Positions 6,269 through 60,468 of a stretch of 64,000 bases of DNA are shown here, piece after piece. The number at the start of each line of letters is the position of its first letter. Position 1 is the stretch's first letter. A program made the translations under genes and the position numbers. The notes beneath the pieces were generated by a model. That model made no database searches and was not told where the DNA came from. It saw only the letters and a program-made list of their open reading frames with translations. The stretch is from an uncultured bacterium (GTDB lineage: Bacteria > Oederibacteriota > Muellerivitia > Muellerivitales > Muellerivitaceae), in assembly GCA_964529445.1 (NCBI GenBank), contig CAZGWJ010000001.1, positions 14,863 through 78,862 of the forward strand. The letters run 5' to 3'.

Positions 6269-6320
6269 TATTCTATTATTTGTCAAGGGGCAAATGGCGA
6301 GGATAACGGCTTAATTCAAC

Positions 6321-7859: not shown

Positions 7860-8024
7860 GACGACCCCTGAACGGCTCTCACCACGAAGACACGAAGGCA
7901 CCAAGGTGGAACCTGTATGATGGAAGACACGGAAACGATCCCGGTGCAAGCTTTGGATGCGATGTCCGTGCCCTGATATATATAATGAAGCGCGGACGAA
8001 TTACACCCCTTTCCGACCAACTCC

Positions 8025-11237: not shown

Positions 11238-14200
11238 CGGCGCCCCGAAAACCCGCGGATACGAAGATTCGGGAGCGCCTCGTCAGGGCGCGGGGTGTGA
11301 ACGTGACCGTGGACGCCTCGGCCGGCACCGGCAAGACCCACCTCATGATGGACCGGCTTCTTTTCCTGCTGGAGGAGGAGCACGTACCTTTGCCCCGCAT
11401 CGCCGCCATCACATTCACCAAGAAGGCCGCGGGGGAACTCGTCACCCGTCTGCGCGAACGCATCGAAAAGGCGGAGCGGGCGGACGGCGCCGACCGGGCC
11501 CTGCTGCGACGCGCCCTGCAGGACCTGGAACAAGCTTCGGTGGCCACCATCCATTCGTTCTGCGCAGGCCTGTTGTCCGAATACCCCGTGGAGGCGGGCG
11601 TCGACCCCCGCTTGTCGGTCCTCGAGGAGGACCAGGCCCGGGCTTTCGAGTCCGAATGTTGGGACGGTTTCCTGCGCGCCTTGAAGGCGGAGGCGGCCCG
11701 GCCACTCCTTGATGCTTTGCACGCCGGCTTGACGCTCACCCATGTCCAGGAGCTCAAAAGATCGCTGCTTTCGTTCCGCTCCCTGCTTTCACGGCCTGAA
11801 GCGGGGCCCCTTCCGGCACCGGAAGGGGTCCGGTCGGCCCTTGACGCGGCTGCGAAGGTTTTCGGGAGGGAGCGATCCCATTGCACCGACGAGGAGGACG
11901 CGCTCTTCGTCATCGTGGAGGGTGTTGGGGCCTGGAGGGAACGCCTGGCCGGGCTGAAGGGTACCGAACAGGCATTGGCCGCCGCTCGGCAGGGGGAACC
12001 CAAGTTCAACCGCAAGGGGAGCGAGAAGAACTGGGGCGGCAAGGCCCGCATCACAGCCGTCCGGGAAGCGGTCGCGGACGTGGCCGATGCCTGGAGGGAA
12101 TACCAGACCCTCTTCGGCGAGGTCCTCCTGCGGAACCTCACGGGATTCCTCTGGGATTACCTCGACCAATACGCCGCCCGAAAAAGCGAGGCCGGTTTTC
12201 TCGACTTCAACGACCAGTTGCTCAAGACGCGCGACCTGCTCCTGCATCATCCGGAGGTGCGGGAGGCCCTGAAGCGGCGTTACGACCACCTCCTGGTGGA
12301 TGAATTCCAGGATACCGACCCGCTCCAGGTCCAGATCGTCTTCCTGCTTTGCGAGGAGAGGGGCCGATCAGCCGGCCGATTCGAGGATGTCGTCCTCGAG
12401 AAGGGCAAGCTCTTCCTGGTGGGCGACCCCAAGCAGAGCATCTACCGTTTCCGGGGGGCCGACGTCGAGATGTACGAGGACGCCCGCCGCCGCGTGGCCG
12501 CCCAAGGGGGTTTGAACGAGACGCTGGGCGTTTGTTTCCGCATGAGACCCGCCTTGGTGGCCTTTTCCAATCGTTTCCTCGCCCCGCTCTTCGAGGGGAG
12601 CGGCGACTACGTCCCGCAGACGGCCCATCGCGGTGAGCCGGAGGATCCGCGTGCCATTCCGCCGCTCTGGGTCCTTTCCGTTTCGATGCCGGAGGGGAAG
12701 GTGTCAGCCGATGAACGCCGTCTCCTCGAGGCGAAGGCCGTGGCGTCCTTCCTGAAGCGGGGTCTTCTCGCGGGGGCCCACACGGTCCCGGACCGTGACG
12801 GAAAGGGCAACCATCTCCTGGGACCCGGGGACGTGGCGGTCCTCTTCAAGGAACTCTCCACCTACGAGGATGTTTACGAGAAGGCGTTCCGCGAGGCGGG
12901 CCTGCCCTATGCGGTCGTGGGAGGACGGCGCTTCTATAACCGCATGGAGGTCGCGAACCTGACGGCGATCCTCCTGGCCCTGCGATCCCCGGCCGACGAG
13001 GCCGCTGTCGCGGCTTGCCTGCGGGGTCCCGCTTACGGTTTTTCCGACGAGGACCTTTTATCGTTCCGTCTGGCGGGTGGGCGATTCCTCTACCTGGAGG
13101 ATCCGCCCGAGCTCGCAGACCCCGACGGGCGTTTCAAGGCCGCCTTCCGCCAGCTGGGCGCGCTCCACGAGGCCGCGCGGACGCTCTCGACGCCGGATAT
13201 CCTGTTGCGCATCCTTCTGGACACGGCGCTCATGGCCGTGACCGCGGCCCAGCATTACGGCGAGCAACGCGTCGCCAATCTGCTGAAGGTGGTGGACCAG
13301 TCGCGGGACCTGGAGCGAAGCGGCGGCAACTCCTTCCGCAATTTCGTCGAGTGGCTTCAGGCCCGGAGGGAGGAGGCGGCGCGTGAAGGCGAGGCGCCGG
13401 GTCCGGACCAGGCGGGCGACCGCGTGACGCTTATGACGGTGCACCAGGCCAAGGGGCTCGAGTTCCCGGTCGTCGTGGTGGCGGGTGGCGGCGATTGGGA
13501 CAAGGACGAATCGTTTCTCCCGGATCGCTCCAGCGGACGGCTCGAGACCAAGCTGGGGGGTTACCGGACTTCGGGGATGGAAGAGGCGATGGGGCGCGAG
13601 GCCGCCCGACAACAGGCGGAAACGCAACGGCTCCTTTATGTGGCTTGCACGAGGCCGAGGGAATCCCTCGTGATCCCGCTCCTGCCAGACACGGGGGAGA
13701 AGAAATTTCTGGCCCCATTTCTCGGTGCGCTCACGAAGGACGAAGGAACCCACGATCTCGCACCGGGCTTGCAAGGCCATTTCATCGCCTTTTCGGACGA
13801 GCCGGGGAAACGTGCGGACCTCGCGGCCTTCCAGGTTCTCCTGGCGAATGCGAAGGCGGACCCGAAGGCCGTTCGGAGCCTGGCGGATGCACTGGATAAG
13901 TCCGCGGAAGAGAGAAGAAACCGGATCCGGGAGCTCCACGACGCGGGTCGACGCGTCACGGCCCACCGCGTCGCGGAGGAGGAGGGCGAGAACGCTTCGG
14001 CGTCCTCGGAAGCCATGGCGTTCGGGAGCACGGTGCATCGTCTGATGGCCGGGGGGGTGGGTGCCAGGAAGGAACCGTCTGCGGCAACGATCCGTTCCGT
14101 GGGCTTGGCTTCGGGTCTGTCGAAGACGGCGGTTTCGGAGGCGCAGGGCCTGATCGCAAGGGCTTTCGCCTCGCCCCTCATCCTGCGAGCCATGGCCTCG

Positions 14201-31128: not shown

Positions 31129-32910
31129 TCAGCCCAGGCGTTTCCTCAGCGCCTCCATCTGGTCCTTCATCTTGGAAGGGAGACGATCGCCAAAGGTCGC
31201 GAAATACTTCTCCGCGTCGGCGAGGTCGCTCTTGAAGGATTCCTTGTTCACGCGCATCAGTTCCGCGTAGTCCTCCTTCGAGAGGTCCAGGCCCTTGAGG
31301 TCCAGGTCGCCTTCCCGGGGCATCCATCCGATGGGGGTCTTTTCCGCGTCCACCTTGCCCTCCACGCGCTCGCACATCCACTTCAGCACGCGGGCGTTCT
31401 CCCCGAAGCCGGGCCACAACCAGCGGCCCTGCCGGTCCTTTCGGAACCAGTTCACGTAGAAGCAGGTCGGGGCGTTCTCGCCGAGTTTCTCGCCCATGCG
31501 GAACCAGTGGGCGAGGTAATCGCCGGCGTGGTAACCGATGAAGGGGGTCATGGCGAAGGGGTCCCGGCGCAGTTTCTGGCCCACGTCCAGGGCCGCGGCC
31601 GTGGTCTCGGAGGCCGCCGTGGCACCCAGGAACACTCCGTGGTCGAAGTCGAACGCCTGGTGCACCAAGGGGATCGTCGTCGATCGGCGCCCGCCGAACA
31701 CGAAGATGTCGATGGGAACGCCGTTCGGGTCCTCCCAGTCGGGGCAGATGACCGGGCATTGCGAGGCGGGCGCCGTGAATCGCGCGTTGGCGTGCGCCGC
31801 CGGCTCCTTGCAGGCCGGCGTCCACTCGTTGCCCTTCCAGTCGATGGCGTGCTCGCAGGCGGCATCGTGCCCCTCCCACCAGACGTCCCCATCGTCCGTG
31901 AGGGCGCAGTTGGTGAAGATGGTGTTCCTCTCGGCCGAACGCATGGCCATGGGGTTCGACTTCATCGAGGTGCCGGGCGCCACACCGAAGAAGCCGGCCT
32001 CGGGATTGATGGCGTAGAGGCGGCCGTCAGGGCCGATCTTCATCCAGGCGATGTCGTCCCCGATGCATTCGGCCTTCCATCCGGGGATCGTGGGGGTCAG
32101 CATGGCGAGGTTGGTCTTGCCGCAGGCCGAGGGGAAAGCCGCGGCAATATGGAACCGGCGTCCCTCGGGGTTCGTGAGGCGCAGGATGAGCATGTGCTCG
32201 GCGAGCCAGCCCTCCTGACGACCCATGAAGGACGCGATGCGAAGGGCCAGGCACTTCTTGCCGAGAAGCGCGTTGCCCCCGTAGCCGGAACCGTAGGACC
32301 AGATGAGTGTTTCCTCGGGAAAGTGCGCGATGTACTTCTGCTCGATGGGGGCGCAGGGCCAGGGCTTGTCCTTCTGCCCGGCGGCCAGGGGAGCCCCGAT
32401 GGAGTGGAGACAGGGGACGAACTCGCCGTCCGAACCCAGGGTTTCCAGGACTTTCTTCCCGACGCGGGTCATGATGTGCATGTTGACGACGACGTAGGCC
32501 GAGTCGGTGATCTCCACGCCGATCTTGGCGATAGGACTGCCGATGGGTCCCATGGAGAAGGGAATGACGTACATCGTGCGGCCCCTCATGCATCCGTCGT
32601 AGAGCTGGCGCATGGTTTTTTTGAGCTCTCCGGGGTCGATCCAGTTGTTCGTGGGGCCCGCGTCCTCCTGCTTCCGGGAGGCGATATAGGTGCGGTTCTC
32701 CACACGGGCCACATCGGAAGGGTCCGAACGGAACAGGAAACTGTTCGGCCTCTTGCGCACGTTCAGGCGGGTCGCGGCGCCGGTAGCGACCATTTCCTCC
32801 AGCAACCGGTCGTATTCGTCCCTGGACCCGTCGGCCCAGACGACACGGTCGGGTTTGCAGAGGGTCTTGATCTCCTCCACCCAGGCGAGAAGTTTCTTGT
32901 GTTCCGTCAT
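31129..32910 (-). CDS. pckG: Phosphoenolpyruvate carboxykinase (GTP)
   Basis: 593 aa, [36 protein letters not shown]..., typical GTP-PEPCK. Confidence 0.95.
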
Positions 32911-33146
32911 GACGCTCCTCCTTCAAGAAGGCCCGAAGCCCTCTATATTCCCCGTGGCAACCCGCCCGGGGTTGGGCGAGAGTTTAACAACGCAGGCAAG
33001 CAATAACAACAAATATCCCCCGTTTTTCGAGTCCTGCGCTTTCGGGGGGGCCGATGGGGGAAGGATTCTTCGGGCTGGGCGTTATGGGTGTGAAAGGTTT
33101 GAAAAGTGTGAAGGTGTGAAAGGGCAGGAAAAAGATGAACTTTTGG

Positions 33147-33192
33147 GTTGTTCTCCGCGTCTCTGCGTTTCCGCGGTTCCCGTTCCTGTGTT
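33147..33192. repeat. Dispersed CTCTGCG-decamer element, abutting the stop of the 564-aa gene
   Basis: gttgttctccgcgtctctgcgtttccgcggttcccgttcctgtgtt. Confidence 0.65.
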
Positions 33193-34887
33193 TTACGCCT
33201 TCATCTTGCGGAGGAACTCGAAGTTGCTCAGCCGGATCTCCGGGAAGCCCTGGGCGTCTGTGACGAGCCGCCCCCGGGAGTCGCGCGACACCATGACATG
33301 GTTGCCCCGAAGGTTCAGGTCCTCCACCCCCACGGCGGCCAATTTCCGGCGGGTCCGGTCCAGCAGGGCGAAGTACATGTCCTTGTCGATGAGGTTCTCC
33401 TTGTAGGCGCGCAGGGCGTCGATGCCCTCGTAGTAGTCGCCGTCCTGGTCGGCCAGCTTCTCGTCGGGTCCGTTCCAGTAGCCCCAGATGATGATGTAGT
33501 CGCGATTGGGCTTGAGGACGGGCTCCCCGTCGGGCGTGACGAGCACCTCGTGGGAATGGTACCGGGAACCGTCGAAGACGCTTCGGGAGATCTCGGTGGC
33601 GCTGTCGGACATGTAGATGGCGCGGGGATAGATGCAGGCCACGCCCCGCTGGGCCAGTTCCACGGCCAGGGAGACCTCCTCGAAGGGGCTGTTGTACCCG
33701 TGGGACAGGATCTTCTGCTCGTCCTCGCGGAAGGGGTCCATGTCGGGCTGTTGGCCCACGCGGGAGGCCTGCAGGACCAGGTGGATGCCGTCCTTGGTGA
33801 TGGTGTGGTACATCTCGCTGTAGACAGAGATCTTCGTCTTGGGGAAGTGCCGCCAGCGCTCGGGGAGGAAGTAGTCGTAGAGGACGGGGTCCTTCCCGAC
33901 GACCCAGAGGCGGCCCTTCACGCTCTCCACGCGTCCGTACACGTAATCCACCCCCAGCAGGTTGACGGCGTGCAGGCTGGATTCGGGGTTCTCCTCCGTC
34001 CGGACCTTGAAACGGTCCCGCTGGCGCTTCAGGTATTCCTGGCGCTTCTGCTGGCGCACGCGCTCCTCGTTGGAGAGGGTGCGCTCCAGGAGCTCGAAGT
34101 CCACGAGGGCGTAGAGGGTGCGCCCGTCGCGGGTGCGGGCCAGGGTGCGCTCCGATTCGGGCCGGACGATGATATGGTCCGGCTTGTTGTCCCGGACCTT
34201 GAAACCGGCGTCTTCCATGACCTGTTGGGCGTCCAGGGCCAGGCCTTTCATGTTCTCGCGGCTGATGATGCCGGCCGTGAAGGCCTGGTGGGCGTCGATG
34301 CCCTTGATCCACTCGTACACCACGGCGTAGAGGCGGTGCATGTCGAGGGTCACCTCGTCGTGCGAGCGCAGTTTCGAGAGCATCTTGTGTTCCTTGCGGC
34401 CGCTCTGCCAAAGGTCAACGGTCGCGGAGGCCACGAAGATGGCCAGCGGCTTCTGGACCACGATGCGCCGTCCCGAGTGGTAGAGCTTGTTGCGAAGCTC
34501 CTTGAGCAGGGAGAACTCCTCGAAGGGACTGTTGAAGGCCGCGCCCTCCAGCACGTCCAGTTCCTCAGCGCCGGGGATGTCCTGGCCCATGCGGTTCCAC
34601 TTCATCACGATGTCCTTGGAATGCCCGTTCACGGATTTGGTCCGGATCTTGTAGATGGAACTGGTGCCGGAAAGTCGCGTCGAATGCGATTCGAACCAGT
34701 CACGATCCAGCCAGTAGTTGGAAGGATCCAGCAGGTCCAGGAAGGGAAGGCCTTCCGCCGTGACATAAAGCTCGCCCGTGTCGAGGGTCAGGTGGGCATA
34801 CTCGACGCCCAGGACCTTGGTGATGCGGTTCTTTTTCCGGTCCTTGACGCCCTTGTGCCAGGTTTTCAGTTGGGAGGAAGGCGGCAT
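33193..34887 (-). CDS. Hypothetical 564-aa protein made of two homologous halves, each with atypical-kinase-like motifs (RIO/Kdo/APH-like fold suspected)
   Basis: Duplicated segments AAFNSPFEEFSLLKELRNK / GYNSPFEEVSLAVELAQRG. Half 1 has IVMKW, the hinge-like YEWIKG, DHIIVRP and LVDFELL. Half 2 has YIIIWGYW, GNHVMVSRD and IRLSNFEFL. Balanced composition, so the real strand is minus. Confidence 0.7.
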   Translation of the reverse strand: MPPSSQLKTWHKGVKDRKKNRITKVLGVEYAHLTLDTGELYVTAEGLPFLDLLDPSNYWLDRDWFESHSTRLSGTSSIYKIRTKSVNGHSKDIVMKWNRMGQDIPGAEELDVLEGAAFNSPFEEFSLLKELRNKLYHSGRRIVVQKPLAIFVASATVDLWQSGRKEHKMLSKLRSHDEVTLDMHRLYAVVYEWIKGIDAHQAFTAGIISRENMKGLALDAQQVMEDAGFKVRDNKPDHIIVRPESERTLARTRDGRTLYALVDFELLERTLSNEERVRQQKRQEYLKRQRDRFKVRTEENPESSLHAVNLLGVDYVYGRVESVKGRLWVVGKDPVLYDYFLPERWRHFPKTKISVYSEMYHTITKDGIHLVLQASRVGQQPDMDPFREDEQKILSHGYNSPFEEVSLAVELAQRGVACIYPRAIYMSDSATEISRSVFDGSRYHSHEVLVTPDGEPVLKPNRDYIIIWGYWNGPDEKLADQDGDYYEGIDALRAYKENLIDKDMYFALLDRTRRKLAAVGVEDLNLRGNHVMVSRDSRGRLVTDAQGFPEIRLSNFEFLRKMKA

Positions 34888-35035
34888 GGTCCCTCGTTGC
34901 GACGAACGGTTGGCTGATTATACACCGGGGTTAAAAAAGGAGGGCGGCTGAACACCCACAATTACCGCAGAGTCACAGAGGCCTGTCGATCGAGGAAGGA
35001 TCATCATGCCGTCAGAAGAAGTAAGATCTCTGTGT

Positions 35036-35085
35036 CTGAGCGCTTCTGCGGTTCTCGTTGCCGTTCCGCGGTCGTATCGGAATCC
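35036..35085. repeat. Dispersed CTCTGCG-decamer element
   Basis: atctctgtgtctgagcgcttctgcggttctcgttgccgttccgcggtcgt. Confidence 0.6.
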
Positions 35086-35116
35086 ATCCCCTCCATCGGT
35101 GGTTAAAATGGCTTGA

Positions 35117-35165
35117 GTTGTTCTCTGCGGCTCTGCGCCTCTGCGGTTCCCGTTTTCGTGTTGTC
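35117..35165. repeat. Dispersed CTCTGCG-decamer element (three tandem units), abutting the queD stop
   Basis: gttgttctctgcggctctgcgcctctgcggttcccgttttcgtgttgtc. Confidence 0.65.
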
Positions 35166-35169
35166 GGGA

Positions 35170-35640
35170 TTAGTTTCCGCCGCGGTAGGTGACCGAACTC
35201 GAATCCGACTCCCACAGCGTCATCTCGACCGGCGTCACGCCCTCCTTCTTCAGCCGGGGGGCGAGGCGTTTCCAGAGGTCGCGAATGATGTTCTCGGCGG
35301 TGGGCTGGAGGGTGGGCGTCGAGCGGAACGGCTCCACCTCCTGGTTGATGAAGCGGTGGTCGTAGCGGGAACGGACCTCCGAATCCAGGATCTCCTTCAG
35401 GCGCCGGAAATCCACGACAAAACCGGTGTCGCTCTTCACGGGTCCCTTCGCGGTCACGCGGAGGCGGTAGGAGTGGCCATGGGGAAATTCCGCGGCCCTC
35501 GGGTCGTCGGCACGATAGCCCGAGCAACGTCCGAAGACCGACAGGTTCCTCTCGCGGCTCCAGGCGGGGTTGTGGAGGTAGTGGGCCGCCTCGAACGCGA
35601 CCTCTTTGGATATCTCGACTAATTCTTTAGACACGGACAA
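35170..35640 (-). CDS. queD: 6-carboxy-5,6,7,8-tetrahydropterin synthase / 6-pyruvoyl-tetrahydropterin synthase family
   Basis: FEAAHYLHNP...CSGYRADDP...HGHSY, with the Zn-ligand His/Cys pattern of PTPS/QueD. Confidence 0.8.
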   Translation of the reverse strand: MSVSKELVEISKEVAFEAAHYLHNPAWSRERNLSVFGRCSGYRADDPRAAEFPHGHSYRLRVTAKGPVKSDTGFVVDFRRLKEILDSEVRSRYDHRFINQEVEPFRSTPTLQPTAENIIRDLWKRLAPRLKKEGVTPVEMTLWESDSSSVTYRGGN

Positions 35641-35646
35641 TCTCCT

Positions 35647-35685
35647 TACCGCAGAGAACGCAGGGATCGCAGGGAACAGCTAAGA
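35647..35685. repeat. Dispersed CTCTGCG-decamer element (inverted orientation)
   Basis: accgcagagaacgcagggatcgcagggaacagctaagaccc. Confidence 0.6.
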
Positions 35686-35748
35686 CCCTAAGTCGGGAAA
35701 TGCATTCCCGCAAGTGCCTTTTAACTGCGATCAATGATGGAACCCTAT

Positions 35749-35783
35749 AGGGTCGTTCTCTGCGAACTCTGCGTACCCTGCGG
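35749..35783. repeat. Dispersed CTCTGCG-decamer element, abutting the nadE stop
   Basis: gggtcgttctctgcgaactctgcgtaccctgcggt. Confidence 0.6.
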
Positions 35784-37466
35784 TTAATCCTCGGTGAAGC
35801 GCTGCGCGAGGGGCATCCGACGGCCGATGCCGAAGGCCTTCGGGGTCACCTTCAGCCCGGGCGCCATCTGGCGTCTCTTGTATTCGTTGCCCGACACCAT
35901 GCGAACGACCTTCTCCACCACCGATCGCTTGAATCCGGCTTTCACGATGCGGGAGGCTTCCCAATGGTCCTCCACGTAGTGCTTGAGGATGGCGTCCAGC
36001 GTGTCATAGGGAGGCAGGGTGTCCTGGTCGGTCTGGTGGGGCCTGAGTTCCGCCGAGGGGGCTTTCCTGAAGACGGCTTCGGGGATGAGCCGCCGGTGGC
36101 GGTTGGCGTAGCGGGCGAGGGCGTACACCTGGTGCTTGGGAAGGTCCGAGATGACGGCGAGACCGCCGCACATGTCGCCGTAAAGGGTGCTGTAACCGAC
36201 GGCCAGTTCGCTCTTGTTGCCCGTGGAGAGGACGAGACGGCCGAACTTGTTGGAGAGGGACATGAGGAAGAGGCCGCGCAGGCGGGCTTGCGCGTTCTCC
36301 TCGGCCAGTCCGGGTTTCGTGCCCCGGAAGGCGGGAGCGAGGGAGGAAAGGGCCGCGCGGAAGGACCTCGTGATGGGAAGGACCCGGAAGTCGATCCCGA
36401 GGGCTTGGGCGAGGGTTTCGGAATCCTTCACGCTGCCCCGCGAGGAGTAGGGTGAGGGCATCGTGACGCCCATGACGTTCTCCCTGCCCAGGGCCTCGAC
36501 GGCGAGACAGGCCACGAGGGCCGAGTCGATCCCTCCCGAGAGGCCGATGAGCACCCGCGAGAAGCCGCATTTGTTCACGTAATCGCGGGTGCCTAAAACC
36601 AGGGCGCGGAACTGGGCTTCGACGATGGTGGAGGAGGACGGCCGGACGTCGAGCCGCGGGCGGGACGGATCGAAGACCAGAAGGTCCTCCGCGAAGTCGA
36701 GGGCGCGGGCCAGAAGGCGGCCCCTCGCGTCCACGGCCATCGAGGCGCCGTCGAACACGAGGTCGTCGTTACCGCCCACCAGGTTGCAGTACAGGACGGG
36801 GCATCTCAGGCGACGGGCCGCGGTCGCGAGGACGGCCTGTCGCTGGGCGAGCTTGTCGCGGTGGAAGGGGGAAGCCGAGAGGTTCAGCACCAGGTCGGGA
36901 CGGTGGGCCGCCAGTTCCCGGACGGGGTCGCGGTCGTAGAGGGGGCGGCGGTTTCGCCGGGGATTCGCGTTCCAAAGGTCCTCGCAGATGGTGACCCCGA
37001 TCCGAAGGCCATCCAGACGATACGGCGGTGCCAACCGGGGCGCCGGCTCGAAGTAACGGTCCTCGTCGAAGACGTCGTAGTTGGGGAGCAGGACCTTCCG
37101 ATCGACATGGAGGATACGGCCGTCCTTCACCGTGAGAGCCGCGTTGTGGAGGTGCTTGCCGGTATTCCGGTTGGGAAGCACGGTCCCCACGACGGCCGCG
37201 ATGCCGCGGGCCGAGCGTGCCACCCGCTTCAGGGACTTATCGGCGGCCTTCAGGAAAGCGGGGCGCTCCAGCAGGTCGCGGGGGGGATAGCCGGTGAGCG
37301 TGAGCTCGGGAAAGATCGCGAGGCCGCAATCGGCCGCCCGGGCGCGTTCAAGGGAGCGTTCGATCTTGAGGGCGTTTCCCTCAAAGTCCCCGATGGTGGT
37401 GTTGATTTGACATAAAGCTATCTTCAAGTCAGGATGTCCGTCCGGGTTTCGTCGATGTTTCGTCAC
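35784..37466 (-). CDS. nadE: Glutamine-dependent NAD+ synthetase
   Basis: 560 aa. N-terminal CN-hydrolase domain (LKIALCQINTTIGDFEGN) plus C-terminal NAD synthetase domain (GLSGGIDSALVA P-loop). Confidence 0.95.
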   Translation of the reverse strand: MTKHRRNPDGHPDLKIALCQINTTIGDFEGNALKIERSLERARAADCGLAIFPELTLTGYPPRDLLERPAFLKAADKSLKRVARSARGIAAVVGTVLPNRNTGKHLHNAALTVKDGRILHVDRKVLLPNYDVFDEDRYFEPAPRLAPPYRLDGLRIGVTICEDLWNANPRRNRRPLYDRDPVRELAAHRPDLVLNLSASPFHRDKLAQRQAVLATAARRLRCPVLYCNLVGGNDDLVFDGASMAVDARGRLLARALDFAEDLLVFDPSRPRLDVRPSSSTIVEAQFRALVLGTRDYVNKCGFSRVLIGLSGGIDSALVACLAVEALGRENVMGVTMPSPYSSRGSVKDSETLAQALGIDFRVLPITRSFRAALSSLAPAFRGTKPGLAEENAQARLRGLFLMSLSNKFGRLVLSTGNKSELAVGYSTLYGDMCGGLAVISDLPKHQVYALARYANRHRRLIPEAVFRKAPSAELRPHQTDQDTLPPYDTLDAILKHYVEDHWEASRIVKAGFKRSVVEKVVRMVSGNEYKRRQMAPGLKVTPKAFGIGRRMPLAQRFTED

Positions 37467-37500
37467 CCTTGAGATTCGTTCTTGGTGTCTTCGTGCCTTC

Positions 37501-38118
37501 GTGGTGAACGATGCGGTAATGGGAGAGTCTAAAGTGAAGTGCCCGGATTGTCAAAAACTCGATGATTCGCCACGTTGGCGGCGCCTTGGAGCCAAGCTCC
37601 GTGGCGGTTCTCGCCTGGTCGTCGGCGTCCTGGCCGACACGCAGGGAACACTCTCGATGGCCCAGTTGGATTCCGTCAAACGCGCCTTCAAGGGAGCCGA
37701 CGCGATCCTTCATGCAGGGGGCATCGGGGACGTCCGGGTTCTCGAGCAGTTGGAGCCCATGGCGCCCGTCTTCGCCGTGAACGGCAACCAGGACGACCAG
37801 GTCGTGAAATACGAGGTGTTGCAGAAGGTGGTGCTGAACTTCGGACCCGTCCGGTTGGGCCTCACCCATGGTTACGGCAAGCCGCACGGTTTGAAGGCCC
37901 GGCTCCTGAAGGAGTTCGAGGGAGCGGGCGTTTCGCTCATCGTTTACGGGCGCAATTTCGAGCCTACCGCCATGCAGGCGGGGGACGTGTTCTTCTTCAA
38001 TCCGGGTTCCATCTCGGGAACGAGACCGGAGGGGAAGAAGGGCACCGACCGTCCACGTGTTGGGTTACTCTACTTGCAAGGTCAGTGTATTGAGGGTCAG
38101 CCGGGAATACCCCTGTAA
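37501..38118 (+). CDS. YfcE/MJ0936-type metallophosphoesterase. Start uncertain.
   Basis: VGVLADTQGT ... VNGNQDD ... GLTHGYG ... GRNFEP resemble the calcineurin-like motifs. The N-terminal 40 aa are uncertain. Confidence 0.65.
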   Translation: MVNDAVMGESKVKCPDCQKLDDSPRWRRLGAKLRGGSRLVVGVLADTQGTLSMAQLDSVKRAFKGADAILHAGGIGDVRVLEQLEPMAPVFAVNGNQDDQVVKYEVLQKVVLNFGPVRLGLTHGYGKPHGLKARLLKEFEGAGVSLIVYGRNFEPTAMQAGDVFFFNPGSISGTRPEGKKGTDRPRVGLLYLQGQCIEGQPGIPL

Positions 38119-38174
38119 AGAAAGTTAGGAGTTAGGAGTTAGGAGTCGTTGACAAAACAAAGAAGTGCTTATTG

Positions 38175-38230
38175 GTGGCGCCCGTAGGGCGCTGGTGGTG
38201 CCTCGAAGAGGCACTGGTGGTGAAAGAGGT
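38175..38230 (+). promoter_or_regulatory. Tandem GC hairpins GGYGCC-loop-GGCRC-TGGTG in the 5' leader of the lipoate-ligase-like gene. A related copy is at 61869..61905 upstream of mfd.
   Basis: ggtggcgcccgtagggcgctggtg + gtgcctcgaagaggcactggtggtgaaagagg. Copy 2 reads cgtggcgcctcgaagaggcgctcgtggtgaacaagg. Confidence 0.45.
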
Positions 38231-38284
38231 GACTCCGTGATCTGGAAGTTGTTGCCATCGTCATCTAAACCTACAAAATCACAG

Positions 38285-38914
38285 ATGGAGTGGGACGCCG
38301 CCCTCTTCCACTCCTTCAAGAAGGGCGATGCACCCATCCTGCGCTTCTTCTCGTTCTCCCATCCCACCCTCACCTTGGGCCGCCTTGAGGCCAATCGCAT
38401 CGAACTCAACGCCCTTCCTTATCCCTATGAAGTGCGCCCTACGGGGGGGCGGGCCGTCTTCCACTCCGAGGCCGATCTCTGCTACGCCGTCATCGCGTCG
38501 ACCGACGACCCCCTCGTGGGGGGCCGACTGCCCGAGAGCTACCGGAAGATCAGCACCCTGATCGCTAAGGGTCTTGCCGCCCTGGGGCGCCCGGTGGCTC
38601 TCTCCGACTCGCCCCACAAGGGCCGCGGACCGGGCCATTGCTTCTCGGCGCCCACCCAGGCGGAACTGCTCATGGACGGCCGCAAGGTGGCGGGCGGGGC
38701 CCAGGCCCGGGAGGGGGATGTCCTCTTGCAACAGGGGGTCATTCTCCTTAACGTGGGAGAGGGTTGGCGAGGGCTGCTTGGTGAGACCGACCCGGAGAAG
38801 TTGATGATCGGCCTCAACGACGAGGGGCGGGAACCGGTTCTCGCGGCCGCCGACGTCGAACGCGCCGTGATCCAGGCTTTCGTTTCCAACGGTGTGAGTT
38901 TTGATATAACGTAG
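38285..38914 (+). CDS. Lipoate/octanoate-protein ligase family protein (BPL_LplA_LipB catalytic domain, LipM/LipB-like)
   Basis: MEWDAALFHSFKKGDAPILRFFSFSHPTLTLGR..., with the conserved catalytic lysine context LMDGRKVAGGAQ. Confidence 0.7.
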   Translation: MEWDAALFHSFKKGDAPILRFFSFSHPTLTLGRLEANRIELNALPYPYEVRPTGGRAVFHSEADLCYAVIASTDDPLVGGRLPESYRKISTLIAKGLAALGRPVALSDSPHKGRGPGHCFSAPTQAELLMDGRKVAGGAQAREGDVLLQQGVILLNVGEGWRGLLGETDPEKLMIGLNDEGREPVLAAADVERAVIQAFVSNGVSFDIT

Positions 38915-38929
38915 AAGCCGGAACAACAA

Positions 38930-38975
38930 CGCTCACCGCAGAGGACGCGGGGAACACAGAGAACGACTTTTTGGG
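38930..38975. repeat. Dispersed CTCTGCG-decamer element (inverted)
   Basis: cgctcaccgcagaggacgcggggaacacagagaacgactttttgg. Confidence 0.6.
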
Positions 38976-39007
38976 TTTTGGAAGTTGAGTCACCCTCGAT
39001 CGTCTTT

Positions 39008-39036
39008 CCCTGTGACCTCTGCGTTCTCTGCGGTCC
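39008..39036. repeat. Dispersed CTCTGCG-decamer element upstream of the Lpd-like gene
   Basis: cccctgtgacctctgcgttctctgcggtc. Confidence 0.6.
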
Positions 39037-39051
39037 ATGTGAGGTGTATTC

Positions 39052-40610: not shown

Positions 40611-42410
40611 ATGACGAGAAACCTGATGAACCTCCTCCTCACCCTCCTGATCGGCCTGATGCCGATGGCTTTGGCGGCTCAAGGGGCGCCTCCGGGCGGC
40701 AAACCCCTCCTCCCCAAACCGGGCATCGAGATGTTCCCGACGGGCGACCTCCAGGAAGGTTTGGGCGTCGCCGAGATCGTCCCCGTGGAGGGTCAGCCCT
40801 TCAGGAAGGCCATCCGCCTCACGACCCTGAAGGCGGGTGCCATGAAATGGAATCCGCAGAACGACATCATGATCACGGTCCCGACCCAGGCCGGGGACGT
40901 CATGCTCCTCGAGTTCTGGATGAGGGCCGTCAAGGGCCAGGGCGAGAGCGGGGACGCCAAGAGCGAGGTGGTCTTCGAGCGGTACGGCGACCCCTGGACC
41001 AAGGCCATCGAGCAGAGCATCTCGGCCGGGCCGAAATGGAAGAAGTTCATGATGCCCTTCGTGGCCCGGGAGGACCTGGAAGCCGAAAAATCCCATCTTT
41101 CCTTCCGCATGGGGTATGGGCCGCAGAGCTACGAACTGGCCGACGTCAAGATCACCAACTACGGCACCAAGAAGAAGCTATCGGACATGCCCCAGACCAA
41201 GGTGACCTACGGGGGCATGGAGGAGGACGCTCCCTGGCGCAAGACGGCCGAGGAGAACATCGAGAAGGTCCGCAAGGGCGACCTCACCGTGACGGTGAAG
41301 GACAAGAACGGAAAGCCCCTGTCCGGCGCGAAGGTCTCGGTTCGCATGAAACGCCACGCCTTCGGGTTCGGTTCGGCCGTGGTGGCAGGCCGGATGGCCG
41401 GCACCGGCGAGGATTCCGACCGTTACCGCGCCGAGATCGAGCGGCTCTTCAGCCGCGTGGTCTTCGAGAACGACCTGAAGTGGGGTTTCTGGGAGCAGGG
41501 AGCCACGAACAGCGGCGGATGGAGCCGCAAGGAAACGCTGGATGCCGCGAAGTGGTTGAATGACCGGAACATCGAGATCCGGGGTCACAACATGGTCTGG
41601 GGCGGATGGAAGTACATGCCGGGTGATGTCCAGCAACTCAAGGACAAACCGAAGGCCCTGGAAGCCGCCATCGAGAAGCGCATCATGGACGTCGGCGGAG
41701 CGATGAAGGGGAAGCTGGTCGAATGGGACGTGGTCAACGAGCCGGTCCCGGAGAAGGCCCTGACGGATATTCTGGGCCAGGATGCGCTGGTCACCTGGTT
41801 CAAGAAGGCCCGCGAGGCCGACCCCAAGGCCGTTCTCTTCGTGAACGATTATCCCAACCCCGATTCGATGGGGCACCTGGACGGATGCGAGGCGGTCATC
41901 AAGTTCCTGCAGGAAAAGAAGGCGCCCGTGGGCGGCTTCGGGTTGCAGGCCCACATCGGCGAGTCCCCCTGGTCCATTCCGGACCTCCTCCAGGTCATCG
42001 ATCGTTTCGGCGCCCTCGGGGTCCCCGTGGCGATCACCGAATACGACACCCAGATCAAGGACGAGGAGTTGGAGGGGCAGTTCACGAAGGATTTCATGAC
42101 GGCGGTCTTCAGCAACCCCCACGCCAACAGCTTCATCACGTGGGGCTTCTGGGACGGGGCCCATTACGGCCAGAAGGCGCCCTTCTTCAAGCGGGATTGG
42201 TCCTTGAAACCCGCTGGCAAGGCCTTCGAGGAACTGGTGCTCAAGGATTGGTGGACCAACGCGGACGGGAAGACCGACGCGGCAGGTTCGTACCAGACAC
42301 GCGGCTTCGCGGGGGACTACGAAGTCGTCGTGAAGTCGGGCTCCAAGTCGGTGACGGTCAAGGCCCAGTTGTCCAAGGACGGCCTGGCCCTCCCGGTTGT
42401 TTTGAAGTAA
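40611..42410 (+). CDS. Secreted GH10 endo-1,4-beta-xylanase with N-terminal carbohydrate-binding-like domain
   Basis: Signal peptide MTRNLMNLLLTLLIGLMPMALAAQG, then the GH10 catalytic signatures WDVVNEP and ITEYDTQ. Confidence 0.8.
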   Translation: MTRNLMNLLLTLLIGLMPMALAAQGAPPGGKPLLPKPGIEMFPTGDLQEGLGVAEIVPVEGQPFRKAIRLTTLKAGAMKWNPQNDIMITVPTQAGDVMLLEFWMRAVKGQGESGDAKSEVVFERYGDPWTKAIEQSISAGPKWKKFMMPFVAREDLEAEKSHLSFRMGYGPQSYELADVKITNYGTKKKLSDMPQTKVTYGGMEEDAPWRKTAEENIEKVRKGDLTVTVKDKNGKPLSGAKVSVRMKRHAFGFGSAVVAGRMAGTGEDSDRYRAEIERLFSRVVFENDLKWGFWEQGATNSGGWSRKETLDAAKWLNDRNIEIRGHNMVWGGWKYMPGDVQQLKDKPKALEAAIEKRIMDVGGAMKGKLVEWDVVNEPVPEKALTDILGQDALVTWFKKAREADPKAVLFVNDYPNPDSMGHLDGCEAVIKFLQEKKAPVGGFGLQAHIGESPWSIPDLLQVIDRFGALGVPVAITEYDTQIKDEELEGQFTKDFMTAVFSNPHANSFITWGFWDGAHYGQKAPFFKRDWSLKPAGKAFEELVLKDWWTNADGKTDAAGSYQTRGFAGDYEVVVKSGSKSVTVKAQLSKDGLALPVVLK

Positions 42411-42456: not shown

Positions 42457-42607
42457 CAATTCCTCAGAACCGATCTTTGGTGATAGAGGAATGGGTGAGG
42501 GGATCAGTTCGATGTTACCCATTGAGTCGGATGATGTTTTTCGCGCCTTCGCGCCTTCGCGATGGCTGTGAATTGTCCGTGTCCTATTTGTAATCTCGGA
42601 GGTTTCC

Positions 42608-47346: not shown

Positions 47347-47570
47347 GGTTATCTCCGATAGAAAGTAAACCCGCAGGGGAGGCGGGTGCCGGCATTCTAT
47401 ATCTAGCAAACGGAAATGAGGAAAATTGAAATCGGTACAACGAAAGAACCATGACCGTCAATTCAACGACGTTTGTGGTGGGCGCGCCCGTGTTTTGCGA
47501 TGCTTCCATTCGCAATGACGAATTATATGACGGGGTCGTTCTTTGCGGGCTTGGCGTACTTGGCGGTTAA

Positions 47571-50153
47571 TTAATCGGTCGTGCCGAAAGCCTCGGCCGG
47601 TATAGGTTCCCACTTCTCGGCTCCGGGCGGCATCCACAGGAGGTGCAGGGCCATATCGGACCCTTCCTCCTTCCTGTATTCCAGCGTCAGGGGGTAGGAT
47701 CCCGGTCCCAACATCAGGCCGGGCGAGCGGCCCCCGTCGTTCACGGGCAGTTCCTTGCCAGCGACCGTCAGGATCGCCTGGTCCAGCGTCAGCACGTCGA
47801 AGCGGTATCGGCCGCCCTGGGTCACCTTCAACCACCCTTGCCAGCGGATCGAGAAGGGCGGGAAGTCCTCGAACGGGAAATCCTTCTTGTTCGTGAAGTT
47901 GATCTGAGGGTCCCATTGGATGGAAACGAGTTCCCCCTTGTTCGCGTAGTAGCCCTTGAGTCCGGTGGCCAGGGGCAAGGTCGAGAGGAACATCGGGGAG
48001 TCGAAGCGGGCGGATTTTCCGCTCGGCAGAATCATCTGGACCTCGGCGCGCGCGGGTCCGGGCCGGTGGATGAGCGCCAACCTCACCCGGTGGAAGCCGC
48101 GCACCAGCGTGACGGGCCTGTTCCAGGCGACCGGGTCGCGCCCGATCCTCAGGTAGGCCTCGCCATTGGTCTTGGCCCGGAAAACGTAGGCACCGCTCTG
48201 CTCGAACCAACCGACCGCATCCAGCGTGGCCTTGTACGGTCCATCCGGCAGGGCATCGCCCAGTTCCCGGAAAGTGCCGGTTCCATCCTGTCCCGTGATG
48301 ACGGCTTTCATGCCCTGGGCCGCCCGGGCGGCAGCCTCCGGGATGGTGAGGAAGGTCAGAAGCGCCCGGCCCTTCGGGTCGAGGAAACGATCTTCCTTCG
48401 CCTCCGGATAGAGGCGTTTCAAGTGAGCCACCACGCCGGATTTGTATTCCTCAAGGACATAAACCAGGTCGCGGCCCTCCGGGAGGACGGGCGCCGCCAA
48501 GTGCCGGGGGTATTCGAAGGTGTGGACGTTATCGCGGTTCCCGTAGGAGAGGAAAGACACCGTATTGTGCCGGCTGTAGAGGGGGGTCACGCAGAAGACG
48601 GCTTTCTTCCCGAGACGCTCGATCATGCGGCCGATCCGCGTGGCCTCCACGTGGGGTCCGTGCCAGCAATCGGCATTCTTCGCCTGCGAGATGAAGTAAA
48701 CGTGGAAGTTCAGGTAGGTGATGAGGGCCAACAGGACGGCCAAGCCCTTGTTGCGCCTCCTGCGCCATTTCGGCTTGAGGACCTGGAGCCGGTCGTAAAG
48801 ACGGACGAGTGCGGTGCCCGCGAGGATGGCAATGAAAGGCGTGAGCGAGAAGAGCCGACTGGATTGCGCGGAGGAGTCGGCGGCCAGCAGGGCCGGCATT
48901 GTCATCACGATGAGTCCTGCGAGGGCAAAGGCCTCCCATTTGCGGCGGCGGATGTGGCGCACGGCCTGCAGGATCCCCAGGACGAAGAGAATGCCCGTGA
49001 AGGGGTCCAGCATCGGAGCGCCGGGCAGGTTGTGACGCGGGTTCAGGTCGCCCTGGTAGTTGAACATCAACTTGGTGCCGGTGATGTTGCGGACCAGGGG
49101 CATCACGCTCTTTTCGGCCTTCATCTGCGAGAAGATCCAGAGATCGCCTTCCCGGTTTCCGATGTTCTTCGAGAGGACCATGTGAAGCAGCAGAGGGAGT
49201 GCCAATGCGACGAAGGCGATCAGCATTGCCCGGTGGGGCTTGAAGAGAAGGGCGGCCTGTCTGATCCCCCTGGGACGGAGCAGGAGCACGAAGACCAGGA
49301 GGAGCAGGGGGGCGATCTTGAAGGCCTGATAGGTATAGAGGCCCAGACCGAGCACGACACCCGACAGGATGAAGGCCCAGAGACGCTTCTTCACGACCTT
49401 CCGGGCCACCAGGTAGAGCGCGAGGGCGCCGAAGAGATAGAGAGGCACTTGCACGGTCGGGTAGCCGTTGCGGCTGTAGATGACGTGCCAACGCATGACG
49501 GCCAGCAGGAAGAGGGATGCCAGGGCCACGCGGGGGCCCGAGAAGTGGCGAACGACGTAATAGACCAGGGGCATCGCCAGGAGCGCCAGGAAGACGAAAA
49601 AGAGGTGGAAAGCAAGATAGGAGGATCCGAAAACCCCGAACCAACCGGCCAATTGCGTGAAGAGAAGGGGTTCGGGGACCGCCTGGGTGTAGGCGTCGAA
49701 GAAGGGGTTCCATCCTTCCTTCAATATGCGGAGGGCGTTGAGGCCGGTGAGACCCTGGTCGCTGTGCATTCCGGAGGGCATCTCGGAGAGGCGGAAGACG
49801 CGCAGGAGGAGGGCGAGGAGCATCGTGGAGCCGAACAAAGTGGCTTCGACGCGAAAGGGAACGGGTTTTTCCCTGGGCGGCGTCTTGCGGTCGGGGGGGA
49901 CGAAAAACAGGAGGAGGACGGCGGCGAGGACGAACAGGGAAAGCCCGATCCAGAGGGTGGGTTTCACCCCCGGGATGACAAGGCAGGCCTGCCCCAGGAT
50001 CAAAAGCCCGAGGGCCAGCCAGTAGGCATGGGCCTTGAGGACCTTTTTCACTATGAGGGGATTATATAAGGAAACCACCGATTGGCGGTTTCGATTTTGT
50101 AGGGGCGACCCCATGCGGTCGCCCACTCGAAATTCACGGATCGGGTGGCCCAC
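47571..50153 (-). CDS. GT39/PMT_2-family membrane glycosyltransferase (paralogue 4) with C-terminal PA14-like domain
   Basis: MHSDQGLTGLNALRILKEGWNPFF and GDLNP motifs. The C-terminus WQGWLKVTQGGRYRFDVLTLDQAILTVAGKEL...LTLEYRKEEG is PA14-like. Confidence 0.75.
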   Translation of the reverse strand: MGHPIREFRVGDRMGSPLQNRNRQSVVSLYNPLIVKKVLKAHAYWLALGLLILGQACLVIPGVKPTLWIGLSLFVLAAVLLLFFVPPDRKTPPREKPVPFRVEATLFGSTMLLALLLRVFRLSEMPSGMHSDQGLTGLNALRILKEGWNPFFDAYTQAVPEPLLFTQLAGWFGVFGSSYLAFHLFFVFLALLAMPLVYYVVRHFSGPRVALASLFLLAVMRWHVIYSRNGYPTVQVPLYLFGALALYLVARKVVKKRLWAFILSGVVLGLGLYTYQAFKIAPLLLLVFVLLLRPRGIRQAALLFKPHRAMLIAFVALALPLLLHMVLSKNIGNREGDLWIFSQMKAEKSVMPLVRNITGTKLMFNYQGDLNPRHNLPGAPMLDPFTGILFVLGILQAVRHIRRRKWEAFALAGLIVMTMPALLAADSSAQSSRLFSLTPFIAILAGTALVRLYDRLQVLKPKWRRRRNKGLAVLLALITYLNFHVYFISQAKNADCWHGPHVEATRIGRMIERLGKKAVFCVTPLYSRHNTVSFLSYGNRDNVHTFEYPRHLAAPVLPEGRDLVYVLEEYKSGVVAHLKRLYPEAKEDRFLDPKGRALLTFLTIPEAAARAAQGMKAVITGQDGTGTFRELGDALPDGPYKATLDAVGWFEQSGAYVFRAKTNGEAYLRIGRDPVAWNRPVTLVRGFHRVRLALIHRPGPARAEVQMILPSGKSARFDSPMFLSTLPLATGLKGYYANKGELVSIQWDPQINFTNKKDFPFEDFPPFSIRWQGWLKVTQGGRYRFDVLTLDQAILTVAGKELPVNDGGRSPGLMLGPGSYPLTLEYRKEEGSDMALHLLWMPPGAEKWEPIPAEAFGTTD

Positions 50154-51737: not shown

Positions 51738-51895
51738 ATCTTCGACAAGTATGCAAAGCCAGTCGGATCGATCTCTCCTAAATAACGCCTAATTCCTCAT
51801 TCCTAATTACTAATTGGGGTGCGACGATTGGGGCATGACGCGCCCTTCGCGTATAATGACCTCCGAGTGATATATCCTCCTCGCCGGAGAGCGTC

Positions 51896-57168: not shown

Positions 57169-57206
57169 GCTCACGCTTCACAGACCTTGATGGGTCTCTG
57201 CGGACA
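57169..57206. repeat. Dispersed element gctcacgcttcacagaccttgatgggtctctgcggac (decamer family plus the 14-mer shared with 44182..44195)
   Basis: CACGCTTCACAGAC also occurs at 44182..44195. GGTCTCTGCGGAC matches the decamer core. Confidence 0.55.
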
Positions 57207-60231: not shown

Positions 60232-60468
60232 CCGTTGCAGGGCCCTCGGAGCGGTCGAAACGGCGTGAAGGTCCCGACGGGGAATGTCCTGTATACGGGC
60301 CGTTCCAACCGAAGCCCCCCTCGTTGAAACCGATCGGATCCCCCGGTACCTTGTCTCAGTCCGGGGTCGGCCAAGCCGTCTTCCCGCCGTCGTTGTGGGG
60401 CTTCACCTTCGACCTTCGACCTGCTACCTTCTACCTGGACAAGGCAACCCACGGAGGTTCGGAAGCTG

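Follow-up and report, generated by a model that had tools for sequence, protein, structure and literature searches.

In a 64,000-nucleotide (nt) stretch of a metagenome contig from an uncultured bacterium of the Muellerivitaceae (CAZGWJ010000001.1, positions 14,863–78,862 of the forward strand, 62.6% GC; hereafter the window, to which coordinates refer unless a locus is named), we identified a discrete family of dispersed intergenic repeats that does not reflect compositional bias. Each element is a short array of a 7-nt unit, typically CTCTGCG, and carries the features—unit consensus, three units, a GGT end and outward-facing pairing—that characterize the ends of a cassette in which two mirror-image arrays enclose a small gene of the GxxExxY family. 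Such cassette ends bracket GxxExxY genes in many phyla, and their two arms co-vary. We consider it probable, at roughly 55%, that the elements of the window are gene-less copies or halves of this palindromic element, i.e., non-autonomous derivatives of a horizontally spreading nuclease cassette, comparable to REPINs (hairpin-forming dimers of repetitive extragenic palindromes, REPs) or to miniature inverted-repeat transposable elements (MITEs); their mobility and the role of the nuclease are inferred.

Spaced heptamer arrays in the window and across phyla

The unit found in the window follows the consensus C-T-Y-N-G-Y-G, and successive units are separated by spacers of 1–3 nt, usually pyrimidine, which together give a period of 8–10 nt; the fixed decamer proposed in the initial annotation of this DNA was not borne out. 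All 11 intergenic arrays comprise exactly three units, usually preceded by GTT and followed in 10 of 11 cases by GGT, and the alignment of the 11 copies yields GTCGTT-CTCTGCG-N-CTCTGCG-N-CTCTGCG-GGT. The exact sequence CTCTGCGG occurs 14 times against 3.8 expected (none of 100 shuffles attained this count), and three-unit YYCYGYG arrays with a period of 8–10 nt were found six times, as compared with 0.02 in shuffled sequence. A broader definition of the unit led to 12 three-unit arrays, of which 11 fall within the non-coding DNA that makes up about 16% of the window according to a rough gene map (binomial p ~2e-8). The twelfth array (41526–41552) is coding, lacks the flanking signature and looks like a chance match. 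The initial annotation had described a dispersed intergenic family, present in both orientations and set against gene ends, and had named an equal frequency inside coding regions as the mark of mere sequence bias; on both counts its description stands. The same is true of the high density it reported between 33 and 39 kb, where 8 of the 11 arrays are located. The GGT end of each array points to the nearest gene and lies 0–40 nt from a stop codon or from a ribosome-binding site (RBS) or start codon. Six arrays abut the stops of converging genes—cydB, an open reading frame (ORF) of 564 amino acids (aa), queD, nadE, a lipoate-ligase-like gene and an 860-aa ORF—and are thus antisense at gene 3' ends, and four lie in sense orientation just 5' of an RBS or start codon, namely those of queD (array 35650), a metallophosphoesterase gene (37481), an oxidoreductase gene at 39052 (39008) and an ORF at 42562 (42539). 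The array at 7883–7905 is probably a fifth of this sense-oriented kind, the start of its downstream gene not being fixed.

Scanning species-representative genomes with the pattern CTCTGCG-N(1-3)-CTCTGCG-N(1-3)-CTCTGCGG, we recovered at least 120 loci with the exact three-unit arrangement, for which the estimated chance expectation is about one match. The matches were distributed over Cyanobacteria (Microcoleus, Nostoc, Scytonema and Fischerella), Planctomycetota, Verrucomicrobiota, Acidobacteriota, Chloroflexota, alpha-, beta-, gamma- and delta-Proteobacteria, Bacteroidota, Chlamydiae, Elusimicrobia, Nitrospirota, Gemmatimonadota and other phyla, with Fischerella muscicola PCC 7414, Algoriphagus sp. 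A40 and a Microcoleus isolate among the cultured carriers, and at least 120 contigs of a viral collection carried the same exact pattern. Across 141 arrays in these other genomes, the spacers were almost always pyrimidines, and the last unit was followed by a conserved GGT-K-A-A end, with T in 90% of arrays, then G, T or A, and then A-A. Control heptamers with the same composition as CTCTGCG, one reversed and one permuted, gave 31 and 29 loci in the viral collection; the spacers within these control arrays were identical in 28 of 32 and 26 of 30 cases, i.e., they are plain tandem repeats, and unequal spacers occurred in 4 of 32 and 4 of 30 of them as compared with 98 of 145 CTCTGCG arrays. A survey of spaced arrays in ~0.9 Mb of DNA from the collected loci (designated by L numbers below) further showed that these genomes also hold related units—CTTTGCG, CTCTGTG, CTCCGCG, CTTCGCG, CTTGGCG, CTCGGCG and CTCAGCG. 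These spaced arrays always close with G-GT-K, and unit positions 1, 2, 5 and 7 are conserved while position 4 is free. Arrays with an exact period of 7 nt co-occur in some loci and form a separate class.

Two of the collected loci display arrangements of their own. In the viral contig L153 (IMGVR_UViG_3300024287_000138), nine single arrays are spread over 13 kb (1124–13079) on the strand of most ORFs, eight of them ending in GGTTAA and the last in GGTTAT, with no inverted partner at all, unlike the mixed orientation seen elsewhere. The Lentisphaerae contig L066 contains three copies, ~92% identical, of a 265-bp element made of an array hairpin and ~70 nt of flank (4265–4527, 5861–6152 and 6129–6417), two of them in tandem.

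Mirrored arrays bracket GxxExxY genes

The full cassette, as observed in other genomes, has the structure 5'-TTCAC-(CGCAGAG-N)x3 ... small gene ... (CTCTGCG-N)x3-GGTGAA-3', with ~30 nt between the first array and the ORF and ~15 nt between the ORF and the second array. Two loci of different phyla, L047 (Verrucomicrobiae) and L079 (Thermomicrobiales), contain such a small ORF as the loop between the arms, and its product belongs to Pfam family PDDEXK_3 (PF13366, E 1.7e-41) and NCBIfam family GxxExxY (TIGR04256, E 6.7e-43). Ten of the 120 array-selected genome loci listed carry a GxxExxY ORF, flanked by arrays in nine: both arms are present in L079, L047, L015, L017, L102, L034, L062 and L064, and only the downstream arm is visible in L072, where the gene begins at the contig end. 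The two arms share a different unit type in L062 (CTTGGCG) and in L064 (CTCTGTG). The genes of L047 (7183–7579) and L015 (2414–2843) are split by frameshifts, which indicates that those cassettes are decaying.

An independent sample of 80 GxxExxY loci from metagenome contigs, chosen by protein similarity only, gave the same picture. Among the 73 loci with both flanks readable, arrays with three or more units, oriented as expected, were present on both sides in 46, on at least one side in 62 and on neither in 11. Counted per side, the expected array was found in 54 of 76 and 58 of 77 flanks (with the wrong orientation in 5 and 9), against a background of 8.7% in random 215-nt windows of the same loci. 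Three units on each arm were present in 38 of the 46 two-armed cassettes. The arms also match each other individually: the duplex energy of a cassette's own arms averages -48.4 kcal/mol, as compared with -33.3 kcal/mol for pairings with the arms of other cassettes, and the own partner arm ranks within the best 10% for 35 of 46 cassettes. The upstream array lies a median of 28 nt from the GxxExxY ORF, a gap that leaves little space for a promoter of its own, so that read-through transcripts would hold both arms. Approximately one in eight sampled pairs encloses a GxxExxY gene, and no other recurrent cargo was found between arrays among the sampled loci; in three contigs that are nearly identical to one another, the two arrays around a phage gp49-like gene simply occupy the spacers on either side of it.

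The enclosed protein has ~125 aa and an intact D...(D/E)-x-K catalytic motif, with D64, E74 and K76 invariant in two alignments, and is therefore a predicted nuclease of the PD-(D/E)XK type. The family is large (7,999 of 8,000 scored candidates at E <= 1e-10), and copies 75–82% identical to the Thermomicrobiales protein are found in Anaerolineae, Dehalococcoidia, Acetothermia and Tritonobacter. PDDEXK_3 has been listed as a family of unknown function with 'multiple transfers, mixed clades' (PMC3424549). A sequence search identified no relative in the PDB, and no PHROG match was obtained; a Cas4-like match was weak, and the AlphaFold2 model was poor (mean pLDDT, the predicted local distance difference test score, of 46.6). 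Many of the database proteins (P0125, P0131 and P0134, among others) have 139–142 aa rather than 127 aa; the extra N-terminal residues probably stem from gene callers translating the purine-rich array, as in L064 (…HRDTEAQRD…).

Pairing extends to arrays without a gene between them. In the other genomes, 107 of 221 arrays belong to a pair that runs from a purine-rich arm through the loop to a pyrimidine-rich arm, with GGT facing outward, and 9 show the reverse order; at the viral loci (at least 120 contigs), the corresponding counts are 113 and 0. The loops measure 2–130 nt and are not conserved in sequence, and nested pairs occur. The two arms have mirror-matched spacer lengths in 155 of 196 pairs, as compared with 83 in a swapped register and ~57 with random partners, whereas spacer sequences are complementary in just 107 of 392 cases. 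With complementary units and spacers matched in length but mostly not in sequence, the stem thus consists of three 7-bp helices joined by small, length-matched internal loops. The outer flanks prolong the palindrome, and no direct repeats were seen there.

These observations suggest the following scenario. The two arms, being mirror images, would be able to pair as a 25–30 bp stem interrupted at the spacers, and the predicted nuclease may have as its substrate the hairpin or cruciform into which its own flanking DNA folds. The cassette would travel between lineages together with its gene; horizontal movement of the complete unit would account for proteins and arrays that are nearly identical across phyla. 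Within a genome, multiplication would proceed mostly in the form of non-autonomous hairpins, much as REPINs depend on the REP-associated tyrosine transposase (RAYT) or MITEs on a parent insertion sequence. Spacers at gene ends, above all 3' ends, would be the places where copies cause the least damage and persist; their subsequent decay through unit slippage, point mutation and the loss of one arm would leave single arrays. Paired copies within read-through transcripts would form long double-stranded stems that might act in the processing or stability of the RNA, probably only incidentally. More tentatively, and with less confidence than we place in the origin of the window elements, we propose that heptamer-array hairpins and the GxxExxY minigene constitute an unrecognised class of bacterial mobile element, present in most phyla and in phages and among the most widespread repeat families, in which the nuclease may mobilise or home both cassettes and their gene-less derivatives.

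Copies in the window and their turnover among relatives

The copies identified in the window are the following.

2196–2231 (units 2196–2218), plus strand: single array CTCAGCG-G-CTCTGTG-T-CTCTGCG with degenerate tail GTCCCCGTTTCTG; GGT end 13 nt from the stop of cydB (2232–3458, minus; Pfam Cyt_bd_oxida_II).
7883–7905, minus strand: single array of the CTTCGTG type, CTTGGTG-C-CTTCGTG-T-CTTCGTG, then GGTGAG.
33153–33192 (units 33153–33175), plus strand: single array CTCCGCG-T-CTCTGCG-T-TTCCGCG with degenerate tail GTTCCCGTTCCTGTG; ends at the stop of the 564-aa ORF (33193–34887, minus).
34966–34980, minus strand: two-unit array CTCTGTG-A-CTCTGCG, then GGTAAT; one arm of a weak pair in the spacer between queD and the 564-aa ORF, with a TGtTATAAT promoter-like box downstream of the array.
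35028–35085 (array 35028–35050), plus strand: degenerate array CTCTGTG-T-CTGAGCG-CTTCTGCG-GTTCTCG and onward; partner arm of 34966–34980.
35123–35165 (units 35123–35145), plus strand: single array CTCTGCG-G-CTCTGCG-C-CTCTGCG with tail GTTCCCGTTTTCGTG; 24 nt from the stop of queD (35170–35634, minus; Pfam PTPS).
35650–35674, minus strand: array CCCTGCG-AT-CCCTGCG-TT-CTCTGCG, then GGTAAGGAG; arm of the nadE-queD hairpin, continuing directly into the queD RBS.
35758–35782, plus strand: array CTCTGCG-AA-CTCTGCG-TA-CCCTGCG, then GGTTAA, the TTA of which is the nadE stop codon (nadE 35784–37430, minus); other arm of the nadE-queD hairpin.
37481–37503, plus strand: single array of the CTTCGTG type, CTTGGTG-T-CTTCGTG-C-CTTCGTG, then GGTGAAC; 39 nt upstream of the metallophosphoesterase start (37543; Pfam Metallophos_2).
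38937–38961, minus strand: array CTCTGTG-TT-CCCCGCG-TC-CTCTGCG, then GGTGAG; hairpin arm, 22 nt beyond the stop of the lipoate-protein ligase-like gene (38165–38914, plus; Pfam LplA-B_cat).
39008–39032, plus strand: array CCCTGTG-AC-CTCTGCG-TT-CTCTGCG, then GGTCCA; second arm with 38937, 19 nt upstream of a pyridine-nucleotide disulphide oxidoreductase gene (39052).
42539–42561, plus strand: atypical array of the CTTCGCG type, TTTCGCG-C-CTTCGCG-C-CTTCGCG, lacking the GGT end; abuts the ATG at 42562.
47541–47565, plus strand: single array CTTTGCG-GG-CTTGGCG-TA-CTTGGCG, then GGTTAA; the 860-aa ORF (47571–50153, minus) has its stop 5 nt away.
57169–57206, plus strand: doubtful copy with one CTCTGCG unit, perhaps representing a minimal hairpin of one unit per arm (CACAGACC...GGTCTCTG); matched by none of the array definitions.

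Eight of the nine copies claimed in the initial annotation proved real, at or near the positions it gave, the doubtful 57169–57206 being the exception, and five related copies had been missed (34966–34980, 7883–7905, 37481–37503, 42539–42561 and 47541–47565). The common tail GGTTCCCGTTT that it attached to the units is confined to three copies (2196, 33153 and 35123), where it reads as two extra degenerate units. Copies 47541 and 35758 have the prefix GGGTCGTT in common. The statement that the elements are neither palindromic nor hairpins is correct for single arrays, which fold no better than shuffled sequence (z -0.5 to -1.6, with array 2196 at -0.5), but does not hold for pairs. Three inverted pairs, their GGT ends outward, account for six of the window arrays (34966/35028, 35650/35758 and 38937/39008). 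Two of these pairs fold far more stably than shuffles: the nadE-queD pair (35641–35790) reaches -65 kcal/mol (z -5.68) and the pair at 38925–39045 reaches -54.7 kcal/mol (z -4.75); the fold of pair 34966/35028 is weak (z -1.55).

Comparison with related genomes revealed that the arrays are quickly gained, lost and resized. Contigs L001 and L002 are identical to the window and add no information. Relatives at 87–90% protein identity keep the gene order nadE, queD, 564-aa ORF and phosphoenolpyruvate carboxykinase (PEPCK) gene, and their spacers differ. Between nadE and queD, the window carries a CTCTGCG pair, L123 a CTTCGCG-type pair, L124 two CTCTGTG pairs and L390 a different palindrome without an array. 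When the queD to 564-aa spacers of the window and L123 are aligned, the 35123 site holds three units in the window and one in L123, and the 34966 site two and three, respectively. The array 33153, which follows the 564-aa ORF, is absent from the same spacer in L123, L124 and L390, and no spaced arrays occur in the intergenic DNA of L126 and L127 (80% identity; ~21 kb each), in which the few matches look like chance occurrences in coding sequence. The absence of arrays from the same spacers in relatives at 80–88% protein identity indicates that they are dispensable; the window repeats are fast-evolving occupants of spacers rather than regulators specific to the neighbouring housekeeping genes. 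The initial annotation had proposed such a comparison as a check for insertion polymorphisms; unit type, number and presence differ within the same spacers, and no clean pair of empty and filled sites was found.

The 564-aa ORF of this region, in which no Pfam domain was detected, appears from sequence to encode a protein that is widely conserved but lacks an assigned function. More than 2,000 homologues were found at E <= 1e-20 (53–90% identity for the 120 listed), spread over Verrucomicrobiota, Omnitrophota, Elusimicrobia, Spirochaetes and other groups; the closest named relative belongs to a Verrucomicrobiota bin (80% identity). A homologue adjoins the PEPCK gene in the eight related contigs that were covered far enough downstream (L124, L126, L127, L128, L129, L390, L391 and L393).

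Competing explanations and related repeat systems

Several points weigh against a mobile cassette as the source of the window elements. No GxxExxY ORF was found in the window or in the contigs of its close relatives (L123, L124, L126 and L127), which means that the window copies would be gene-less hairpins and half-sites, and the gene was found in 0 of the 120 viral loci listed, though all carry arrays. We detected no transposition or homing event, no target-site duplication and no clean empty-versus-filled site. To our knowledge, the families of transposases and homing endonucleases described so far do not include PDDEXK_3. Protein identity is almost the same between cassettes of the same and of different unit type (59.5% versus 58.4%), so there is no sign that the protein reads the variable positions of the unit. 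The gene contexts, moreover, depend on crude ORF calling, and insertion of the nuclease gene into the loops of pre-existing host hairpins would fit the data equally well.

The principal alternative, which we regard as unlikely, is that the hairpins serve the host as RNA elements: their stems would be cut by RNase III or block exonucleases and would insulate or stabilise adjacent messages, and GxxExxY genes would be independent selfish genes with a preference for the hairpin loops, where read-through would transcribe them. The distribution of pairs (19 between convergent and 22 between co-directional genes, as compared with 3 between divergent ones; p 4e-4) is the pattern of 3'-end elements, and it agrees with the position of every window array within 40 nt of a stop codon or RBS, as well as with the short array-to-ORF distance in cassettes, which would place both arms in read-through transcripts. 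The units also remain complementary while the spacers, matched in length, do not, and the nadE-queD pair persists in the window, L123 and L124 (two of three close relatives) despite its differing units. Selection at the RNA level, however, finds no positive evidence in the strand data, since the sense strand is the more stable one in only 12 of 22 co-directional pairs, i.e., without asymmetry in folding energy, and the orientation of single arrays is at most weakly skewed with respect to the transcription around them (87 co-oriented, 122 anti-oriented; p 0.018). The arrays' dispensability among relatives argues in the same direction. The identity of units and ends across phyla would require a universal host reader, none of which is apparent, whereas a moving cassette explains it directly. 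An Rfam search of the window returned only a tRNA at gathering score and nothing relevant at E up to 10, apart from one chance match to a microRNA hairpin over the 38935–39034 stem.

A markedly less probable account takes the arrays as sites for a protein that binds single-stranded nucleic acid, with one unit per oligonucleotide-binding (OB) fold or RNA recognition motif (RRM), as in a cold-shock protein or S1, and that sets translation or message fate. A 7-nt unit with a flexible spacer of 1–3 nt suits independent domains better than duplex binding in helical phase, unit positions 1, 2, 5 and 7 are conserved with 4 free, and four to five window arrays stand in sense orientation directly 5' of a start codon, in analogy with a proposal made for TAACTGA heptamers upstream of Beggiatoaceae start codons (PMC4679880). 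Such sites would not be expected to come in mirror-image pairs with matched spacing and unit type, as half of the arrays do, nor with an exact three-unit count common to both arms, and their orientation to genes is mixed, with the six antisense arrays of the window as examples. That the family consists of microsatellite-like slippage products of a GC-rich genome, or of compositional bias, is highly improbable. Unit number does vary at the same site between relatives, other short tandem arrays occupy window spacers and arbitrary heptamers yield a baseline of ~30 viral loci; but the CTCTGCG arrays differ from such controls in their unequal spacers, and slippage predicts neither the recurrence of the unit, the three-unit count and the GGT-K-A-A end in many phyla nor the pair polarity (107 versus 9), the association with one protein family and the non-coding location of 11 of 12 window arrays. 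Equally remote is the idea that the paired arrays are intrinsic (Rho-independent) terminators: they are strong hairpins at gene 3' ends, yet they lack a T-run, and the conserved flank, rich in T ahead of the hairpin and in A behind it, is the opposite of what a terminator shows. A terminator scan was negative at the arrays, with a separate terminator-like hairpin adjacent to one pair (34942–34957), and several of the hairpins lie inside apparent operons, directly before an RBS. Resemblances to the 3' strand of 16S rRNA helix 45 (CCUGCGGUU), the uptake signal of Haemophilus (AAGTGCGGT), the T-arm of tRNA (GGTTCRA), the elemental pause consensus of RNA polymerase (G-10, TGYG), Rho loading sites, Chi sites and boxA were dropped as untestable or too weak.

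If the elements of the window are indeed derivatives of a nuclease cassette, the nearest known kind is a palindromic extragenic repeat accompanied by a small gene for a nuclease, and there is a substantial chance that they represent a distinct class of mobile element. In behaviour they come nearest to the REP/REPIN-RAYT system, with which they share a short extragenic repeat with many copies per genome, inverted dimers that form larger hairpins, a bias toward 3' ends, an abundance that differs strongly between relatives, singletons that resemble dimer remnants and a repeat-flanked small gene of nuclease type. A short motif common to different phyla is a further parallel, as REPs carry a GTAG or CGTC tag shared across phyla (PMC3733652) and the present family carries its unit and the GGT-K-A-A end. 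A single REP, however, is a palindrome of 20–40 bp, whereas a single array is a direct triple repeat without self-structure; the GTAG/CGTC tag is missing, with TTCAC|CGCAGAG and CTCTGCG|GTGAA as the ends; and the flanked gene, which lies within the hairpin loop, encodes a PF13366 PD-(D/E)XK protein rather than an IS200-like Y1 transposase of the RAYT kind. Like MITEs and their parents, the elements occur as dispersed copies with mirror-image inverted ends around either a gene (the full form) or a short non-coding loop (the miniature form). They differ in that the enclosed protein falls outside known transposase families, that the ends are three spaced heptamers rather than a continuous terminal repeat and that no target-site duplication was found—a weak negative, given that the true outer boundary may lie further out.

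ORF-containing intervening sequences of 23S rRNA, as in Leptospira, likewise have a small ORF enclosed by inverted repeats and a long stem in the transcript; they reside within rRNA helices, their stem is an RNase III substrate and their ORF encodes a four-helix-bundle protein. No ORF of this four-helix-bundle family was found between arrays in the sampled loci. Among heptamer repeats, the cyanobacterial short tandemly repeated repetitive (STRR) sequences are a comparable class of exact tandem repeats. TAACTGA direct repeats have been described in Beggiatoaceae, Cyanobacteria and Bacteroidetes (MacGregor 2015, PMC4679880). Both resemble the present arrays in being intergenic heptamers, often upstream of start codons, with a patchy spread across phyla that suggests horizontal transfer and with no known mechanism. 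The TAACTGA repeats, however, are exact head-to-tail repeats with a period of 7 nt and up to 43 copies (PMC4679880), as opposed to spaced units with a period of 8–10 nt and nearly always three per arm; in addition, that report gives one indirect repeat in 170 sets, i.e., essentially no pairing, in contrast to the mirror-paired arrays described here. Neither these arrays nor their association with the GxxExxY family turned up in our literature search, which was incomplete, and a prior description elsewhere is possible.

Should the proposed origin be correct, it would provide a testable substrate, the hairpin or cruciform of its own flanks, for a protein family (GxxExxY/PDDEXK_3) with thousands of members whose function is listed as unknown, and it would explain the pyrimidine-rich intergenic repeats of many environmental genomes, which are often called as spurious small ORFs. 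It would also add a second system, besides REP/RAYT, that pairs a small nuclease gene with a cloud of non-autonomous hairpins, in this case across phyla, and could offer a useful marker of horizontal transfer as well as a possible source of structure-specific nucleases.

Further features of the window spacers

Spacers of the window contain other elements as well. Upstream of the PEPCK gene (31129–32910), a 53-nt block (GTTGTTATTGCTTGCCTGCGTTGTTAAACTCTCGCCCAACCCCGGGCGGGTTG; 32958–33010, minus strand) with an internal CCCGGG-centred hairpin differs hardly at all among the window, L123, L124 and L390, the remainder of the spacer being unalignable; this block may be a conserved leader, an operator or a small RNA for PEPCK. 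Beside array 33153, four tandem copies of GGTGTGAAA (33087–33123) represent a different type of repeat, with no counterpart in the spacers of relatives. The interval separating the metallophosphoesterase gene from the lipoate-ligase-like gene contains an exact heptamer array (AGTTAGG x3.4, 38123–38146) followed by a 22-nt tandem repeat (TGGTGGTGCCCGAAGGGCAC x2.4, 38173–38222), each unit of which is a small hairpin. Two further spacer arrays with an exact period of 7 nt, CCTAATT x4 (51788–51815) and CTTCGAC x5 (60401–60436), belong to a class distinct from the spaced arrays. Finally, the terminator-like hairpin at 34942–34957 (minus strand) is accompanied by a T-run and then by the TGtTATAAT promoter-like box (34912–34920), between the pair 34966/35028 and the start of the 564-aa ORF; this arrangement suggests that the real transcription signals of the spacer lie apart from the arrays.

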